Virus record (IMG/VR): IMGVR_UViG_3300049482_000044
Coordinates: 1 to 64,000 of that record
Length of the DNA: 64,000 nucleotides
From: a virus
Lineage: Duplodnaviria > Heunggongvirae > Uroviricota > Caudoviricetes
Direction: 5' to 3' (one strand)
Below are positions 8,337 through 63,544 of this stretch, one piece after another (position 1 is the stretch's first letter; each line of letters begins with the position of its first letter). The translations under genes and the position numbers were made by a program. The notes below the pieces were generated by a model. The model saw only the letters and a list, made by a program, of their open reading frames with translations. It was not told where the DNA came from and did not search any database.

Positions 8337-11300
8337 ATGACTTTTGTTCACCTTCATAATCATTCACAGTATTCGCTGCTCGACGGACTTAATTCGCCTA
8401 CTGAGTTGGTCGCAGCCGCAAAGGATTTCGGGCAGCCTGGAATCAGCATCACCGACCACGGAACGCTGTCGGGCCATAGAGAATTGCAGCGCGCAGCCAA
8501 GGCTGCTGGGCTAAAGCCAGTGCTAGGTATCGAAGCCTATATCTCACCAACTGACCGTTTCGACAAGCGCTCCGTAAAAAAGCGGGATGACGATACGAGT
8601 CTCTACAACCACATTATCTTGCTGGCTAAGAACCAGACAGGTGTACGAAACATTCACAAACTTTCTGAGACTGCCTGGACCGAGGGTTATTACTACAAGC
8701 CACGTATCGACGCAGAACTATTGTCTGAGCACCGCGACGGAATCATTGTTCTGTCGGGCTGCCTTAATGGTCTGATCGCCAAGGCAATCGAGCGGGAGGA
8801 TATGGACGAAGCCCATAGGCTAACCAAGTGGTTCAAGGACGAGTTTGATCAGGACTTCTATATAGAGGTCCAGGCTCACAATCCAGCCACGACGAATGGC
8901 CCGCTGCTCGAACTGGCGGACTACTATGGCGTCAGGCCTGTCGCTACCTCTGACTGTCACTACGCTAAAGAGGAGGACGGCTGGATAGAGGAGGCACTGC
9001 TGATTCTATCAACAAACCCCAAGGCTAATCCAGAAGCCGACCTTGCTTATTCAAAGACCATTAAGGATATCTATGAGCGCTTTAACTACCTTTACCCCGA
9101 CCGCAAGATGTCCTTCCAGAACTTCAATCTATACATTCAGTCCCGTACGAGCATTTCTGATGACTTTGCAAAGCAGGGCGTAACACGCACAGACATCTTT
9201 GACAACACGATTCACGTCCTCGATAGTATCGGTGACTACGAATATAAGGAAAACCTGGCCGTACTACCGAAGCCGAAAAAGGATGCCGCCGCAGAACTAC
9301 GTAGGCTATGCATAGAGGGTCTAAAGCGTCTAGGTCTAGACAATAACGCCAAGTACCTAAAGCGTCTGGAAATCGAACTAGACATTATTAGCAAGAAAGA
9401 TTTCTCGTCGTACTTCCTGATCGTGGCTGACATGGTTAACTGGACCAAGGGCGAGGGTATACTGGTAGGACCGGGTCGAGGATCGTCTGCTGGCTCCCTA
9501 GTTTGCTATGCTCTCGATATCACTACCGTTGACCCGATTAAGCGCGGGCTGCTGTTCGCTCGATTCATTAACGAAGAGCGCAACGACTTTCCCGACATTG
9601 ACGTTGACATTGAGGGACGCAGGCGTAACGAGGTCAAGGACTATATGGTCAAGAAGTATAAGAACGTTGCTTCCGTGTCCACGTACTCCTACTTTGCTGA
9701 CAAGGGTGTTATTCGTGACGCGGCCCGAGTGTACGGGATTGATATCTCTGAGGTAAACAAGGCTCTTAAGCCAGTAGGGTCATTCGAAGAATTCGAGACA
9801 TCTATTAACACCCGCTCGTTCCGTGAAAAGCATCCTGAGGTTCTGGACCTGGCTAAGCATCTGCGCGGTAGAATTCGTGGGGCTGGAATGCACGCGGGTG
9901 GACTGGTTGTAGCCAACAAGCCTATTAACCTTTACGCACCAATCGAGACGCGTTCGTCTACTTCTGATGACGGCACGCGCATTCCCGTGGTGGCTGCTGA
10001 CAAGAAAGAAATCGCGCTCATCGGCTTGATCAAGATCGACGCCCTCGGTGTCAATACTCTCAGCGTCATTGCAGATGCACTTAGCCTCATTAAGACACAT
10101 AAGAATGTAGATGTAAAACTGCTGGACCTGACGCTTGACGACCCTGCTGTATTCCGTATGATTTCGGCGGGGTTCACCAAGGGTGTATTCCAGGCTGAGG
10201 CAAATCCTTCTACCAATCTGCTAGTTAAGATGGGCTGTGAGAACTTCGATACGCTCGTGGCTAGCAACGCCCTCGTGCGTCCTGGTGCTATGAATACAGT
10301 TGGTGCCTCGTATGTTGCGAGAAAGCAGGGTCGTGAGCAAGTCAAGACCCCCCACCCCATCCTAGACGAGATAACAAAGGAAACATTCGGCGTTATCATT
10401 TACCAGGAGCAGGTCATGCTTGCCTGTACCGAATTGGCTGGGTTTAGTTGGTCTGAGGCTGACGAGATTCGTAGCATCATCGGTAAAAAGGAAGATCCTC
10501 ACAAGTTCGATGCATTCAAGCAGCGCTGGCTCGATGGAGCGAGCAAGAATATTTCGATGGAAGATGCTGAGCAGTTGTGGCACGACTTCGAGGCTCACGC
10601 TGGGTACTCGTTCAACAAGTCTCACGCCGACGCTTACTCAACTGTGTCCTACTGGACTGCCTGGTTGAAGTATTACTACCCCCAGGAATTCATGACGGCC
10701 CTGCTGATTAATGAGAATGAGTCGGCTAAGGTGACTTCCTACCTTATCGAGGCGAAGCGCCTGGGAATTCGTGTGCTGCTTCCCCACGTCAACATGTCTG
10801 GCATGACTTATCAGATGGAGGGCGATGCTATCCGCATCGGGCTCAGCAATATCAAATACATGTCCGATAAGACTGTGCCATCGCTGATGCGACACCGACC
10901 GTACGACTCATACGCCGCGCTCATGGAGGTCGCGGGAACGAAGGGGTCTGGCGTTACCAAGCGTCTCATCGACGCACTGGACGCAATCGGTGGGGCCGTG
11001 TTTGACGACAACCCACTGACTGGTAATGAGACGTCAAATTTCTACGAGTATCTGAATATTCCCAAGTTTGATACGTCTAAGATCCCGCTGCCAGTTATGC
11101 TTAACGTGCGTACTGCTGACGAGTATGAAGAGGAAGGAACGTTCGCTATCCTAGCCATGATTCAGAATGTTAAAAAGGGCAAGGGCTGGGCGCTGCTGGA
11201 CTTTGTTGATGAAACGGGTCAGGCTTCTGTATTTACGTCGGACAAGGCTGATATAGAAAAGGGTCAGATGTATCTGATGCTTGTATCCGATAATCGGGTT

Positions 11301-32105: not shown

Positions 32106-32437
32106 GGGGGCGAAAGGTAATCGATTTCGTTTCGGAAGTATGAAGTGGCAGCGGGCGCGGTTACCCTAAGTAACCAACAACAAAATAAACGACGAAACAA
32201 ACCAGATTGTTGCAGCAGCAATGCTCAACATCGACGCCGAGTACGAGGCACTTTGTGCCGAGTACGCTCTCATCACTGTATGAGTGGCCGGGTGTCAGCG
32301 ACCTAGGAACAGAACGCTGAAAACCGCCTGAGAGGGCACCCTGTAATGCCAGCAACAAAGAATAACCGGCAGGATGCATCGCTGTATCTGTGACATATAA
32401 TGAACGAAAGACGCGGGTTCGAATCCCGCCGCCTCCA
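32106..32437 (+). ncRNA. ssrA: tmRNA (ssrA-like), about 332 nt
   Basis: 5-prime GGGGGCG pairs with 3-prime CGCCTCC-A; 3-prime end GACGCGGGTTCGAATCCCGCCGCCTCCACC is near-identical in form to bacterial tmRNA TLD; internal AAACGACGAAAC resume-region homolog; tag ORF ends ...AEYALITV-TGA at 32281. Confidence 0.65.
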
Positions 32438-32451
32438 CCTAAGGAGCAATA

Positions 32452-40248: not shown

Positions 40249-40667
40249 ACCAGTTGAAAACTAAATAGCAATAAAACAGGCATGGCTGATATGTTGGGGT
40301 AACCCAATGAAAGGCGGGTGACAACCGCCACCAGAAATGGTAATCCATGCAATCCGAAACTGCAACGAGTTCCATACCAGGGGACCGGGGCATCGTAAGT
40401 CAGGCGGGAAACGGCAAACGTGCTTATCCCAGGTTGTCACGCAGACAACCAGCCACAAACGACGAGCGATGCTGGCAGGAAGGAAGGATCATAAGTCCGA
40501 GGCGTCAACCTAGGGCGGGGTCCATGAAGCCGAAAAAGTGGTCTGGCGAGGTCATAAGTATCGACGGAGATTGAGAGTACCTGACAAGGAAATCATATCG
40601 GAGGAGTGAAGCATTCTGTAGGCCAAAATCCTACGGACCTTCTAGGGAAGCGCTTCTTCTGTCAAAA

Positions 40668-40739
40668 GCAACTATAGGTCAATGGTAGACCGATTGTATT
40701 TGGAACAATATGTTGCAGGTTCGAATCCTGCTGGTTATT
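40668..40739 (+). tRNA. tRNA-like, anticodon UUG (Gln-type), weak acceptor
   Basis: D GGTC-AATGGTA-GACC and T-arm GCAGG-TTCGAAT-CCTGC are canonical; acceptor GCAACTA/TGGTTAT has a mismatch. Confidence 0.4.
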
Positions 40740-41038
40740 TCAAAAGCGAAAGACTTCCCTTGTTCTTGTTCGAAAGCGCCTTAATACTTGGCCCTCCGGG
40801 GAACCAAGTTCATCCCGAGCCGCAAGCGGAGGATGGTTCATAGCCAGTAATGCAGTCAAGAGGCTTGCTACCTCTAGACGAAGTGAAAACTGTGGAGTGG
40901 AACAGGAATATAAAGAGTGGTATGCTATACATACCAGGCGTGATAGTTAGCATGGGGACATGCTGGAAACGATGGGAATCAATAATCCGTCTAGAGACTA
41001 TCAAGGCAAGCGAGTATTCTCATCGCCCGCCAACTTTA

Positions 41039-51841: not shown

Positions 51842-51974
51842 CTATGCGTTTGCGTGCGTTTGCCTGTGTTTGTAGTCATTTATGACCACATGGTCCCGTT
51901 ATTAATGATCAAGTTACAGTAGTCATAAAGTATATGTGTAATTGGGCGAATAAATAAGGGCTTCGTAATGTCAA

Positions 51975-52000
51975 AAAAGCCTCAAAAACGGGGAAAACAG
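51975..52000 (-). terminator. rho-independent terminator for leftward transcription
   Basis: Minus strand reads CGGGGAAATAGGGCTGTTTTCCCCG followed by TTTTTGAGGCTTTTTT. Confidence 0.5.
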
Positions 52001-52198
52001 CCCTATTTCCCCGCATTTGCGGTCTAAAACATGCCTAAACCATACAAAAACGCTGAAAACGTCTAAATAAGACCTTTATACTCTATTCTGTTAACAAACA
52101 TCGACGCACGCGAAGCGGGCGGTGATTGACATACATACACTATCTATAGGCTTCTTTGTCTATACTATACTAGTATATAGGGACTCCAAAGACTCCAC

Positions 52199-52225
52199 CC
52201 GCCCCGTTTTATACGGGGTTTTTGG
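52199..52225 (+). terminator. rho-independent terminator for rightward transcription
   Basis: CCCCGTTTTATACGGGG hairpin followed by TTTTTGG. Confidence 0.5.
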
Positions 52226-52446
52226 CATATTCAGGCCTAAAATACAGGCTATATATGAAGGTCTCCCTCCACTGAGACAACTTTTCTTCCAGAATACTAT
52301 GGCATGTCTCTCCACTTAGCCCCTAAAAACAGGCATATTTAGGGGAATGAGGCCATTTTCTGCGATATTTGAGGCTCTTCGTAATCTAAAATCGTCCGCG
52401 ACTCTAAATGATCTTCGTAATATAGCCCAAAATCCCGCAAACTATA

Positions 52447-52512
52447 TCATTCTTCGTAAATAGGACATTTCGGCGGGCCATGCCCCGCGAGGCGAGGCAT
52501 GTCAACCCCTGA
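52447..52512 (-). repeat. regulatory repeat unit R1 (degenerate; no gene downstream)
   Basis: CTTCGTAAA box then CATGCC...GGCATG hairpins and GTCAACCCC; lies 3-prime of the last leftward gene. Confidence 0.4.
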
Positions 52513-52638
52513 GGTAGAAATCCGGTGGCGGGGAGATGTCCAACTCTCACCGTCTTGGTTATTCGACTTGGGTGCCTACCCCTGATTAGCCGAGCCACCG
52601 GACCCTCTTACAGTATACTAGACCACAAGCAGTCTAGT

Positions 52639-52782
52639 CTACTTCCGGCCCCGCACCACCGGGGCTACAGAAGCAGTCTGGTTGGTTGCGCCGAGGATGC
52701 GACCGGACTCGGTACGCACGACGGCCTTAACGACCTCGCCCTTGCGGGTGTTCCAGGTCTCAGTGCGGACGATAACGTTCAT
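52639..52782 (-). CDS. small protein (47 aa), not in the ORF track
   Basis: Strong SD GAAGGAGAAACAAC-ATG; ATGA overlap with the stop of 52779..52973. Confidence 0.45.
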   Translation of the reverse strand: MNVIVRTETWNTRKGEVVKAVVRTESGRILGATNQTASVAPVVRGRK

Positions 52783-60932: not shown

Positions 60933-61193
60933 TTACTTGCCCTTCCGCGCCTGACGAGCCTTCTGGCCCCGGCGTGCCTTGTAACGCTGGGCATCAGCGT
61001 CTGTCTGGTCCTCGCGCACGTCCGTCTCGATGACGTTCGCGTACACGGTGATCACGCGCTTACCGATGGGGTCGACCACGGCCACGACGCCGTTACGGAT
61101 GTGCCGACGCTGGCCGGGAAAGCGCCCGTTGTCGTAGGAGATCTGCGGGTTGTCCGCAGCAGCGAGCACGTCGTTAACCGAAATGCCCTTCTG
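60933..61193 (-). CDS. hypothetical protein
   Basis: Probable GTG start with GGAG SD at 61193; basic C-terminal tail. Confidence 0.35.
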   Translation of the reverse strand, partial: QKGISVNDVLAAADNPQISYDNGRFPGQRRHIRNGVVAVVDPIGKRVITVYANVIETDVREDQTDADAQRYKARRGQKARQARKGK

Positions 61194-61364
61194 CGAGGCC
61201 TGGACAAGCGCGTGGGCGGTGGCGGTGAACACGATAGACTCCCGAATGTAGGTGGAACAGAGGATCAAAGCAACGGTAGGTTTTCACGCGGACCCTGTAA
61301 GTCCTGTCGCCCCATTTTCTGCGGCGAGTGCTACTAGGCTACCGCTGCTTTCATCCTCTGTTCT

Positions 61365-61497
61365 CTTGTAGTCATAGACTAGCAGCCTGAGCGAGCCGTG
61401 TCTAGCGTTTTCTGGGGAAATATTCGATCTTTCTTAACTTGCCTAGAAGAACTTAGCGGGCTAAGTTCTTGCCCCGCCGAAGCGGGGCTTGTCAAGC
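61365..61497 (-). repeat. regulatory repeat unit R7 with operator-like palindrome
   Basis: TAGTCATAGACTA at 61369-61381; AACTTAGC-GG-GCTAAGTT palindrome; GCCCCGCC-GAAG-CGGGGC hairpin; TGTCAAGCC. Confidence 0.5.
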
Positions 61498-61623
61498 CTT
61501 AGAGACTGTTTTTCCATGCTTGACGCTCACGACGACGGGTGAGACGGCGCTCCTGGCGAGGCGTCATGTTGTTGTGGCAGCAACCGTACGAGCAACGTGA
61601 CTTGTCAGTCACGCGCCCGACGT

Positions 61624-61797
61624 TACGATTCTTGCGGAGCATTAGTGACATCTCCCTCGATATCCCACGTTGCGGCACAGTTCTTCCAATTATCACACTC
61701 AAAACCGATAGGGACGCGCTCCTGCAAGTAGGCGCGTCCCTGCCACTCGGTTTCGACAGAAATTCGATCACCACAGAACGGACAGCGAATGTTCATC
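61624..61797 (-). CDS. zinc-ribbon small protein (57 aa), not in the ORF track
   Basis: MNIRCPFCGD...FECDNWKNCAA (CxxC...CxxxxxC) with an ATG start; alternative to the track ORF 61499..61774 in another frame. Confidence 0.4.
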
Positions 61798-61866
61798 AGT
61801 CACCTACAATCAGAAGCCAAAGAACGGTCAGGGTGGCCGCACTCAGCAGCAGAAGAAATCCCATGC

Positions 61867-62112
61867 TTAGATCATACTCCTACGCGCGGCCTCGGTCAAG
61901 CCTCCGAAGATGCCGTCGAGAACGATCCGCTTGTTGTCCTCGTTCGTCCAGAATCCTTGCGCGAGGCAAGCGCGCTTGACGTCGGCGGGGCAGTTATCGC
62001 ACGCCTGCTCGACAAACTCGTTTTGCTTGCGCTCCATGCCAGACATGCGCCACTTGTCAATGAAGCCAATGTCGAAGCCGAGCGAGTCGGGGTGGCAGGG
62101 AGTGGTGATCAT
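61867..62112 (-). CDS. WhiB-like Fe-S transcription regulator
   Basis: Cys at PCHPD, ACDNC and RAC, plus the GIFGGLT turn (G[VI]WGG-like). Confidence 0.45.
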   Translation of the reverse strand: MITTPCHPDSLGFDIGFIDKWRMSGMERKQNEFVEQACDNCPADVKRACLAQGFWTNEDNKRIVLDGIFGGLTEAARRSMI

Positions 62113-62303
62113 TTCGTTCTCCGTTTCGTTGGTAGTCTTAGACTATCATGGGGATCTGACAGTGCCAGCCTAGAAACGGACATTTCGACTAGTCACTTAT
62201 GACTATTTTTCTGGCAAATAACTAGTCATTCTTAACCATTGACAGAAGATCTTGACGGGCTAAGATCTTGCCCCGCCAGGGGCCGAAGCCCCTAGCGTTT
62301 AGC
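62113..62303 (-). repeat. regulatory repeat unit R8 with two operator-like palindromes
   Basis: TAGTCTTAGACTA at 62133-62145 and TAGTCACTTATGACTA at 62190-62205; CTGTCAGA box; TTGACAGAAGATCTTGAC; GGGC-TAAGATCTT-GCCC and GGGGC-CGAA-GCCCC hairpins. Confidence 0.55.
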
Positions 62304-62547
62304 CCCGATCCCAATAAGAATCGAGGAAGGCGTCCTCGCCAGCGAAATCTGGCACGTCGGCATAGTCCTCGTCATCTTCGTCGTCCTCGTCATCCGGCTC
62401 GACGTCACAGATGCCGTACTCGTGCTCGCAGAGCGCGTGCTCGTTGCCCGGACGGGAGGTGTCGAACGCACCAGGCTCGTCGTACCACTGGACGCCACAG
62501 GGGTCGTCGTTCGTGTGACCACAGCAGGGGAAATCTTCGCAGCGCAT
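62299..62547 (-). CDS. Cys-rich protein with poly-acidic C-terminus
   Basis: SD GAGAGG-N7-ATG; CEDFPCCGH...CGVQ...CEHEYGIC followed by a DDEDDEDDED run. Confidence 0.45.
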   Translation of the reverse strand: MRCEDFPCCGHTNDDPCGVQWYDEPGAFDTSRPGNEHALCEHEYGICDVEPDDEDDEDDEDYADVPDFAGEDAFLDSYWDRG

Positions 62548-62696
62548 GGGCTTGCCTCTCATTGGTTGGTAGCACCAGCGTATCACACGGGTCTGACATT
62601 CGCAGCATTTTCCGGCATCTCGTAACCTGATCGTAACCTTGCTTTTAAGATCTTCGCGGGGGAAGATCTTGCCCCGCCGTGGCGGGGCTGTCAAGC
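62548..62696 (-). repeat. regulatory repeat unit R9
   Basis: TGTCAGACC box; CATTTTCCGGC; TCGTAAC twice; GGGGGAAGATCTTGCCCC palindrome overlapping GCCCCGCC-GT-GGCGGGGC; TGTCAAGCC. Confidence 0.55.
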
Positions 62697-62882
62697 CTAC
62701 TCACCAGCCGTTCCCCAACGGCGGAAATAGTCCATTTCAGCCTGACGCATTGCTTTACGCTCCTCGTCAGAAAGATCGCGGAGAACGAAAGGAAAGCATT
62801 TCGGGCACGCTTTAGCGGTTCCGACATAAACGCACGAACAAACGTCACAAGTGACGTCGGGAACAGGAACATATACGAGCAT
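62697..62882 (-). CDS. Cys4 zinc-finger small protein
   Basis: TAATG overlap with the upstream gene; CDVCSC...CPKC. Confidence 0.4.
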   Translation of the reverse strand: MLVYVPVPDVTCDVCSCVYVGTAKACPKCFPFVLRDLSDEERKAMRQAEMDYFRRWGTAGE

Positions 62883-63142
62883 TAGATAATACCTTTGTTC
62901 AGAAGATCGAGAGCGATATCCCATTTAGCGTCCTCGAATGCCTCGGGAATGAGTGCGTCAACCTCACGCATGGGGTCGAATACAACGGCCTTACCTGTTT
63001 CCAGGTCGAGAACGATCATCGCGCGAGAATAACGGCCAGCCGTCACGCGCACGGGAATGCGCGCGCCACACGCGCCCACGAGGTAGCAATACTCTGGCAG
63101 AGCCACGACGCGCGTACGCACGGGGCGAAACACGCTAATCAT
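62882..63142 (-). CDS. hypothetical protein
   Basis: ATGA overlap start at 63142; 86 aa. Confidence 0.4.
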   Translation of the reverse strand: MISVFRPVRTRVVALPEYCYLVGACGARIPVRVTAGRYSRAMIVLDLETGKAVVFDPMREVDALIPEAFEDAKWDIALDLLNKGII

Positions 63143-63369
63143 CGCGCGCTCGCAGCGAACGGGACGGGCGAGGCATGAACGCCACGACGACCATCGGCCC
63201 AATAGGTGAGCACCTGCTCGGGGACGTTAATCGGGCTACGACCGCGCATGGTCGCAACGTGAGCGGCATAGAACATGCCGACAAGGTGGACACCGTGCGA
63301 GTCGAGAGGCGACAGGACACAGGCAGAGCAACGGCACTTTGGGGATTCATTCATCATCTTCATAGTCAT
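63139..63369 (-). CDS. Cys-rich hypothetical protein
   Basis: CRCSAC motif; the start codon lies inside the operator-like palindrome at 63363-63375. Confidence 0.45.
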   Translation of the reverse strand: MTMKMMNESPKCRCSACVLSPLDSHGVHLVGMFYAAHVATMRGRSPINVPEQVLTYWADGRRGVHASPVPFAASAR

Positions 63370-63544
63370 AGACTATCAGTAGGGTCCGACAGTGGCAGCA
63401 CGGGAACTGGGGCAAATCGGACATATCTGACTAGTCATTTGTGACTAACTTTTCCAGCGAAAAATAGTCCTATCGTAACTTGCTTCCGCCCGCTTCACGG
63501 GCTAAGATCTTGCCCCGCCAGGGGCCGAAGCCCCTAGCGTTTAG
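63370..63544 (-). repeat. regulatory repeat unit R10 with two operator-like palindromes
   Basis: TAGTCATAGACTA at 63363-63375 and TAGTCATTTGTGACTA at 63432-63447; GGTCCGACAG box; GGGC-TAAGATCTT-GCCC and GGGGC-CGAA-GCCCC hairpins (same as R8). Confidence 0.55.

Follow-up and report, generated by a model that had tools for sequence, protein, structure and literature searches.

TAGTC/GACTA palindromes at predicted promoters of an uncultured actinophage-like genome as candidate cis-regulatory sites

Short perfect inverted repeats with the half-site TAGTC recur in the last kilobases of a 64,000-nucleotide stretch of Caudoviricetes DNA (IMG/VR record IMGVR_UViG_3300049482_000044, positions 1 to 64,000; referred to here, at its full length, as the window), and they raise the question of what reads them and to what effect. 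The window is a piece of a large, tRNA-rich, uncultured actinophage-like genome with a G+C content of about 50%. Between 52.6 and 64 kb its genes lie on the minus strand with approximately 10 cassettes between them, each composed of terminator hairpins followed by a promoter. A preliminary description of this DNA had proposed that the repeats are operators of a dimeric repressor that binds cooperatively to paired sites. Based on a comparison of the window with related metagenomic contigs, we lean towards the view that the TAGTC/GACTA palindromes are cis-regulatory sites of one TAGTC-specific DNA-binding protein, with a promoter-distal site as the anchor and a promoter-proximal site as the operator.

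Exact matching confirmed all five perfect palindromes that had been described. TAGTC-N3-GACTA (13 bp, the N3 type) occurs at 61369-61381, 62133-62145, and 63363-63375, three copies where 0.08 are expected, and TAGTCA-N4-TGACTA (16 bp, the N6 type) at 62190-62205 and 63432-63447, two copies against an expectation of 0.00; none of 100 shuffles of the window reached these counts. The half-site TAGTC is itself enriched about four-fold, with 13 copies in 60-64 kb versus approximately 3 per 4 kb elsewhere, and the additional half-sites reported nearby are real, at 62223-62227 and 63465-63469. In the window, both types of palindrome are confined to promoter cassettes, lying within a cassette and not at its borders, and most cassettes carry none. 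A scan of motif frequency had been suggested as a check, and the palindromes are indeed far above chance and fixed in position relative to promoters.

Other parts of the preliminary description require revision. The three repeat units carrying palindromes are not consecutive, given that a palindrome-free cassette at about 62560-62700 lies between two of them. The paired sites are not both about 60 bp apart, but 58.5 and 70.5 bp from centre to centre, and these distances correspond to 5.6 and 6.7 turns of the helix, which are non-integral and do not provide the helical phasing that had been proposed. The element ACTAGAC-N8-GTCTAGT, presented earlier as a weaker relative, is correctly placed at 52617-52638; its half-site is a different one (CTAGAC), it forms a hairpin of -13.6 kcal/mol 3' of the last gene, and it is excluded from the family.

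Near and distant searches with the 60-64 kb region identified no DNA-level relatives in the phage collection. Metagenomic orthologues of 55-92% identity were available for two proteins, the WhiB-like (61867..62112) and the DUF4258 protein (60933..61268), and led to contigs L068-L081; L062 was added via rIIA. Together these contigs provide 85 kb of non-redundant related sequence, in which gene content is shuffled cassette by cassette. The set contains 11 perfect N3 and 11 perfect N6 palindromes versus 0.06 expected for each, an over-representation of approximately 175-fold for either type among relatives that are not phylogenetically independent. In IMG/VR, a scan with a 15-base proximal pattern gave 52 single matches at chance level apart from the true relative L044/L062, and the terminator word AAGATCTTGCCCCGCC gave single matches only.

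The 16-bp sites lie well upstream of the core promoter. TAGTCATTTGTGACTA (63432..63447) starts 72 nt upstream of the -10 hexamer, with its centre at about -76.5 of the promoter of gene 63139..63363, and TAGTCACTTATGACTA (62190..62205) starts 60 nt upstream, with its centre at about -64.5 of the promoter of the WhiB-like gene. The arms TAGTC and TGACTA, 11 positions in all, are invariant in the 11 aligned cassettes (the window and seven related contigs) and are unchanged even where the WhiB-like protein encoded next to them is as little as 55% identical; the A at the sixth position of the left arm is nearly invariant, and the central N4 and both flanks vary. The additional half-sites at 63465..63469 and 62223..62227, which read GACTA on the minus strand, are each positioned 22 nt upstream of a distal palindrome. 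Of 13 distal modules, 11 have a corresponding (T/G)GACTA at 22-23 nt upstream, and the remaining 2 have GACCA in its place. The complete distal module is GACTA-N17-TAGTCA-N4-TGACTA, with half-site starts at 0, 22, and 33 nt that all lie on the same helical face.

Every distal site has a promoter downstream, and the distance from the start of the site to the start of the -10 hexamer is 60 (six times, including the window), 61 (three times), 70 (twice), or 72 nt (twice). The distances thus fall into two classes separated by one helical turn, which place the centre of the site near -64.5/-65.5 or near -74.5/-76.5. In every relative, the distal site precedes the WhiB-like gene or the homologue of 62882..63142, either immediately or at a distance of one to two genes. 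Six cassettes have a distal site without a proximal palindrome (in L071, L073, L075, and L080, and twice in L074). The distal site is therefore likely to be older, more constrained, and independent of pairing, and the cooperative pairing suggested earlier is not required. We also considered the distal site as a sigma-70 or extracytoplasmic function (ECF) promoter and excluded this, as there is no conserved -10 element 16-18 nt downstream.

The 13-bp sites, by contrast with the distal ones, coincide with the predicted core promoter. On the minus strand, all three read TG-n-TAGTCT-A-n-GACTA, that is, an extended -10 followed by nnGACTA up to the predicted +1. Based on the family-wide alignment and a 17-nt spacing, the left arm would be the -10 hexamer and the last A of the right arm, 7 nt past the hexamer, the expected +1. 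TAGTCT lies exactly 17 nt downstream of a -35-like hexamer. The 61.4-kb unit has TAGACA (61404..61399) as this hexamer; the other two units have CTGGCA or CTGCCA, and in them TAGTCT is also placed exactly 17 nt after the conserved box CTGTC(A/G)GA. The segments of the minus strand that comprise the hexamer and the spacer box, each placed exactly 17 nt before the -10, are 63385..63398 (CTGCCA, CTGTCGGA) and 62155..62168 (CTGGCA, CTGTCAGA). In the alignment, the TA and final T of the -10 hexamer (TAnnnT) and an ACTGTC box are invariant, and relatives without the proximal palindrome have TATAAT, TAGACT, or TAGCCT at the same position.

At 61369..61381, TGC-TAGTCT followed by ATGACTA belongs to a promoter that drives a long structured leader and the DUF4258 gene. 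At 62133..62145, TGA-TAGTCT (-10 at 62145..62140) is followed by AAGACTA, and the promoter of the WhiB-like gene has its predicted +1 at 62133, a Shine-Dalgarno sequence GGAGAA at 62122..62117, and its ATG at 62112. This site had been placed between the -10 and the Shine-Dalgarno sequence, but the -10 hexamer lies inside the palindrome. At 63363..63375, TAGTCT (63375..63370) is followed by ATGACTA, and 63363 is at the same time the last A of the palindrome, the predicted +1, and the A of a leaderless ATG. The gene called 63139..63369 most likely starts at this ATG. The ATG at 63369 directly adjoins the -10 hexamer and would therefore lie outside the mRNA; the in-frame ATG at 63363 follows 6 nt after the hexamer, a spacing found at no fewer than eight other promoters of the window, and an independent gene call for the orthologue in L070 begins at the base equivalent to 63363. 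These observations together point to a leaderless mRNA.

The proximal palindrome is found at different promoters in different lineages, for example at L062 17922 (upstream of a 332-aa gene), L076 1738, and L080 1562. Its arms are retained in the closer clade and, for 5 of 9 lineages, at the DUF4258 promoter; elsewhere they are lost. Across 96 promoters of the family, TAGTCT is the commonest -10 (19 of 96) and CTA the commonest +1 context (38 of 96). Nevertheless, nnGACTA follows 11 of the 19 TAGTCT hexamers versus 1 of 77 other -10 hexamers (Fisher's exact test, 9e-9, for counts that are not phylogenetically independent). As judged from these comparisons, the turnover of the proximal site fits better with a modulatory binding site than with pure chance or strict necessity. 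An antisense promoter arising from the symmetric -10 was excluded; the plus strand lacks a TG extension and has a poor -35.

How could such sites act? The arms are invariant and do not covary, and the hairpins that they could form are weak, which together argue for base-specific read-out by a protein and not for an RNA or DNA structure. The enrichment, the invariant arms, and the fixed positions are the behaviour of protein-binding sites, and in this respect the operator-like reading of the preliminary description stands, whereas its pairing, its phasing, its placement of the -10, and the regulators that it named do not. Binding of a protein at the sites and the sign of regulation are what we infer from these patterns. 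A TAGTC-specific protein, encoded by either phage or host, would govern a small set of early promoters around the WhiB-like gene. The distal module of three half-sites would be its conserved anchor, 60-61 or 70-72 nt from the -10, and spacings of these lengths would turn the same face of the distal helix towards promoter-bound RNA polymerase. The proximal site, from TAGTCT through GACTA to +1, would be an operator whose occupancy excludes RNA polymerase from the -10 and +1, and the net effect at the three promoters of the window would thus be repression or shut-off, possibly aided by looping to the distal site. The early gene cluster around the WhiB-like gene would in this way be shut off or autoregulated.

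Several observations weigh against this proposal. The centres of the half-sites are 8 bp apart in the N3 type and 11 bp apart in the N6 type, so that a rigid dimer cannot engage the two types in the same manner, and there may be two proteins or two modes of binding. A dyad at -65/-75 would suit an activator just as well. The palindrome counts among relatives carry the phylogenetic non-independence noted above, and with TAGTCT and CTA as the commonest -10 and +1 context, part of the symmetry of a proximal site is to be had for nothing and only about 4 of its 10 arm bases are "free". The proximal palindrome has been lost from orthologous promoters, namely that of the WhiB-like gene in L071-L075 and that of the DUF4258 gene in L074, L076, L078, and L079. 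Finally, Pfam scans of approximately 130 open reading frames (ORFs) of the window, among them genes of the minus-strand block and about 120 ORFs on the plus strand, detected only MerR-like, Lsr2-like, and two WhiB-like proteins and identified no cognate regulator.

An alternative that we consider possible, though unlikely, is that the distal module is a class I-type upstream activator site that recruits RNA polymerase to promoters with a weak -35, with the proximal palindrome irrelevant or unrelated and the regulon switched on. The catabolite activator CRP binds class I sites of the form TGTGA-N6-TCACA at -61.5/-72.5. The distal site resembles these in being a 16-bp 5-N6-5 dyad stepped upstream by helical turns, and differs in its half-site and in lying about 3 bp off the CRP optima. 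In 13 phage cassettes, the dyad is positioned upstream of the -35, 60, 61, 70, or 72 nt from the -10, in whole-turn steps, as would be expected of an activator site with its centre at about -64.5, -65.5, -74.5, or -76.5. The promoters bearing it have poor -35 hexamers (CTGGCA, CTGCCA, CACGGA, CATCGA, and CGGGTA), the six cassettes with a distal site alone agree with activation, and so does a copy in Streptomyces mashuensis, described below, which has only the distal site. However, the -35 hexamers are just as poor in promoters of this class that lack a distal site, activation leaves unexplained why the same half-site recurs over the -10 and +1, and no activator was found in Pfam, PHROG, or PDB searches, the Ogr/Delta-like zinc-finger match of gene 61623..61796 being below threshold (18.3 versus 26.3 bits).

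Somewhat more doubtful still is the possibility that only the distal site is real and that the 13-bp symmetry is a by-product of promoter composition, with TAGTCT falling beside a favoured ACTA start. The frequencies of TAGTCT and CTA are what such an origin would predict, 8 of the 19 TAGTCT promoters lack GACTA, and in more distant relatives the palindrome is not kept at the orthologous promoters of the WhiB-like and DUF4258 genes. It is more difficult to reconcile with this origin that GACTA follows TAGTCT 11 times and other -10 hexamers once in 77, that the three sites of the window differ in flanks and spacer and hence are not recent copies, and that the distal site, which is conserved independently, has exactly the same half-site. 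That the palindromes are hairpins in RNA or DNA (terminator, processing site, or cruciform) or recombination sites for cassette shuffling is very improbable: although the inverted repeats are perfect and cassettes have clearly been shuffled between relatives, the folds reach only -3.8 to -5.4 kcal/mol without a U-tract, the arms show no compensatory changes in the 11 aligned cassettes, just one arm of a proximal site would be transcribed, the sites are internal to cassettes that mostly lack them, and the palindromes match no Rfam family and lack the stable G+C-rich stem of an intrinsic terminator.

As to the protein that would bind the TAGTC sites, the window encodes two WhiB-like proteins, one Lsr2-like, and one MerR-like protein, and the preliminary description had named proteins of these three types as candidates. 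What is established of the families makes them poor candidates. WhiB-like proteins bind and act through sigma, and to our knowledge none reads palindromes; Lsr2 binds AT-rich DNA non-specifically; and MerR operators lie within -35/-10 spacers of 19-20 bp, whereas the promoters of the window have 17-bp spacers, with their dyads at -10/+1 or at -65/-75. A cognate regulator was likewise missing from PHROG results for the ten genes closest to the sites and from PDB sequence searches made with four small proteins, and neither Cro/CI, ribbon-helix-helix, nor other plausible dyad-binding proteins were found among window proteins in the Pfam, PHROG, and PDB searches. Actinobacterial motifs such as the McbR motif of Corynebacterium glutamicum (TAGAC-N6-GTCTA), the BldD box, and the WhiA motif GACAC differ from the TAGTC sites in half-site or arrangement. 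Literature searches for the TAGTC motif gave primer noise only.

The closest described actinophage analogue is a 17-bp dyad repeat of Cluster O mycobacteriophages, TGTTCGG-N3-CCGAACA, which is present in more than 30 copies genome-wide, many of them inside ORFs, and to which no binding protein or function is assigned (PMC4351075). Like that repeat, the window sites are actinophage palindromes with invariant arms and a variable 3-bp centre, repeated in a leftward region of small genes. Unlike it, they have another half-site and number 5 copies in 64 kb, all of them fixed to promoters at two spacings.

Short dyads at early promoters are also familiar from lambda OR/OL, from the P22 Arc operator (13 bp, with a TAGA-N5-TCTA core), and from the early intergenic inverted repeats of phiC31. 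The sites described here share with these operators the placement of short dyads over -10/+1 or beside early promoters, the presence of multiple sites per regulon, and auxiliary upstream sites. In particular, the 13-bp dyads span the core promoter from the -10 hexamer to the alignment-predicted +1. There is no sequence similarity to these operators, however, and searches of the window found no repressor gene. The phage appears lytic, as judged from rIIA/B and its many tRNAs, and sites in the window would therefore mean temporal shut-off and not immunity. Cluster A stoperators, finally, are 13-bp sites for one repressor that are asymmetric, oriented with transcription, and scattered within operons. 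The window sites are also 13 bp long and repeated in an actinophage, but they are symmetric and promoter-bound and do not qualify as stoperators. Poor -35 hexamers are a feature of promoters in this family both with and without a distal site.

A lead on the host side came from a composite scan pattern, namely the distal palindrome, 26-38 nt, ACTGTCNGA, N9, and TANNNT. It had no match in IMG/VR and matched only members of the phage family in Joint Genome Institute (JGI) metagenomes. In 185,579 reference genomes there was at least one match versus approximately 0.2 expected, in Streptomyces mashuensis JCM 4059 (NZ_BNBD01000005.1; L088 3508-3573). The matching sequence, TAGTCAAATTTGACTA, is located in 73% G+C DNA, in an 84-bp intergenic region between two divergent genes, one of the glyoxalase family and one uncharacterised (161 aa), with 60 nt from the palindrome to a TAGGCT -10, as in the phage, and a near-leaderless ATG. 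The 15-mer CGACTGTCAGACCCC, seven bases of which are outside the scan pattern, is common to S. mashuensis and the phage cassettes of L074 and L076, and a chance match appears unlikely on this sequence evidence. The match points to Streptomyces as the host genus, which is probably correct, and to a possible host factor that reads the module. We consider it an improbable extension that the module (TAGTCA-N4-TGACTA and 60 nt to the -10, with the CGACTGTCAGACCCC box between the two) is a host promoter type through which the early genes of the WhiB-like cluster have been plugged into a host regulon, with a Streptomyces factor activating from -65/-75 and repressing where TAGTC...GACTA covers -10/+1. 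If this were true, one protein would be the on/off timer of the early genes of the phage.

A second connection to Streptomyces concerns a box just downstream of the distal palindrome. The 18-mer GATATGTCCGATTTGCCC at 63410..63427 on the minus strand is identical to sequences in regulatory intergenic regions of Coruscant, a distantly related Streptomyces phage of cluster BE (MT711976.1; approximately 11186-11203, 11100, and 3632). Coruscant resembles the window in having small leftward genes, each with a terminator, an upstream palindrome, approximately 55 nt, and an extended -10, but its palindrome is GGCGCCCGGCGCC and its -10 is TGTAAGCT, and no TAGTC-N3 or TAGTC-N6 sites were found in the first 50 kb of its genome. 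At the second distal site, an ATGTCCG box lies just downstream of the palindrome at 62177..62183 on the minus strand, and the ATGTCCG core is also located 3' of the distal palindrome in several relatives. An everted pair of half-sites, GACTAGTC, overlaps the promoter-proximal arm of both distal palindromes (63429..63436 and 62187..62194) and is limited to closer relatives. The rIIA/rIIB pair is encoded in the window, and its rIIA is 34-37% identical to rIIA of Streptomyces BE/BK phages and of Rhodococcus phage Peregrin.

Additional features were observed around the promoters. The CTGTC(A/G)GA box, often followed by CCCC, is present on the minus strand at 62155-62162, 62592-62599, 63385-63392, and 63763-70 and at more than 40 sites in L062-L086. 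It lies exactly 17 nt upstream of the -10 in one promoter class and thus within the spacer's first half; in many of these promoters no -35 can be recognised, and a phage or host factor could target the box. A consensus promoter, TTGACC-17-TATGAT, is located within the 3' end of the WhiB-like gene (61797-61899, minus strand) and is followed after 6 nt by a leaderless ORF of about 22 codons for a hydrophobic peptide, MGFLLLLSAATLTVLWLLIVGD; L068-L072 have kept both this promoter and the ATG. Between the promoter at 61369 and the DUF4258 gene lies a structured 5' leader of about 115 nt (61252-61362, minus strand), with counterparts at L070 2097-2235, L075 1866-2000, and L076 2643-2785. A helix of approximately 19 bp closes the leader and shows four compensatory pair changes across four relatives; the leader also has a conserved mini-ORF (MKAAVA*/MKETVGL*) and no match in Rfam. 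The true start of the DUF4258 gene is probably a GTG near 61235 and not the TTG at 61268. At 61499-61642 on the minus strand, a very basic protein of 47 aa is 78-91% identical in five relatives and better conserved than the adjacent WhiB-like protein in four of the five; its features are a CSYGCCH cluster and, at the C terminus, an arginine-rich stretch, TRRRERQAWK, reminiscent of the RNA-binding motif of lambda N.

Elsewhere in the window, ARAGORN predicted 23 tRNA genes and a transfer-messenger RNA (tmRNA), and an Rfam scan gave 21 tRNA matches, the tmRNA, and a GOLLD RNA. The tmRNA is at 32106-32440. The GOLLD RNA is full-length (RF02032, 201.6 bits) at 40599-41026 on the plus strand, inside the tRNA-rich block, and a tRNA gene (40668-40739) is embedded within it. 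Approximately 0.8 kb of AT-rich non-coding DNA at 51842-52640, where the plus- and minus-strand gene blocks converge, includes three tandem units of about 36 nt, each with a TTCGTAA end (52359-52460), and a segment that appears structured by eye only (52500-52600); the region could be an origin, a packaging site, or a genome end. It also contains an unverified candidate for a distal-like site with one mismatch, TAGTCATTTATGACCA, at 51873..51888. By comparison with L062 and L068-L081, genes in 52.6-64 kb have been swapped cassette by cassette, with terminator-promoter units at the junctions, which resembles the promoter-stem-loop cassettes of T4-type phages.

In conclusion, palindromic operators at phage early promoters are already well known, and the sites reported here change no concept. 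What they would provide is a concrete cis-regulatory code for the early, "host-takeover"-like region of an uncultured lineage of large actinophages, with two classes of promoter, starts that are often leaderless, a TAGTC regulon around the WhiB-like gene, and a probable link to Streptomyces. The 16-bp site is usable as bait for finding the regulator, and the promoter cassettes may serve as regulated parts for actinobacterial synthetic biology.

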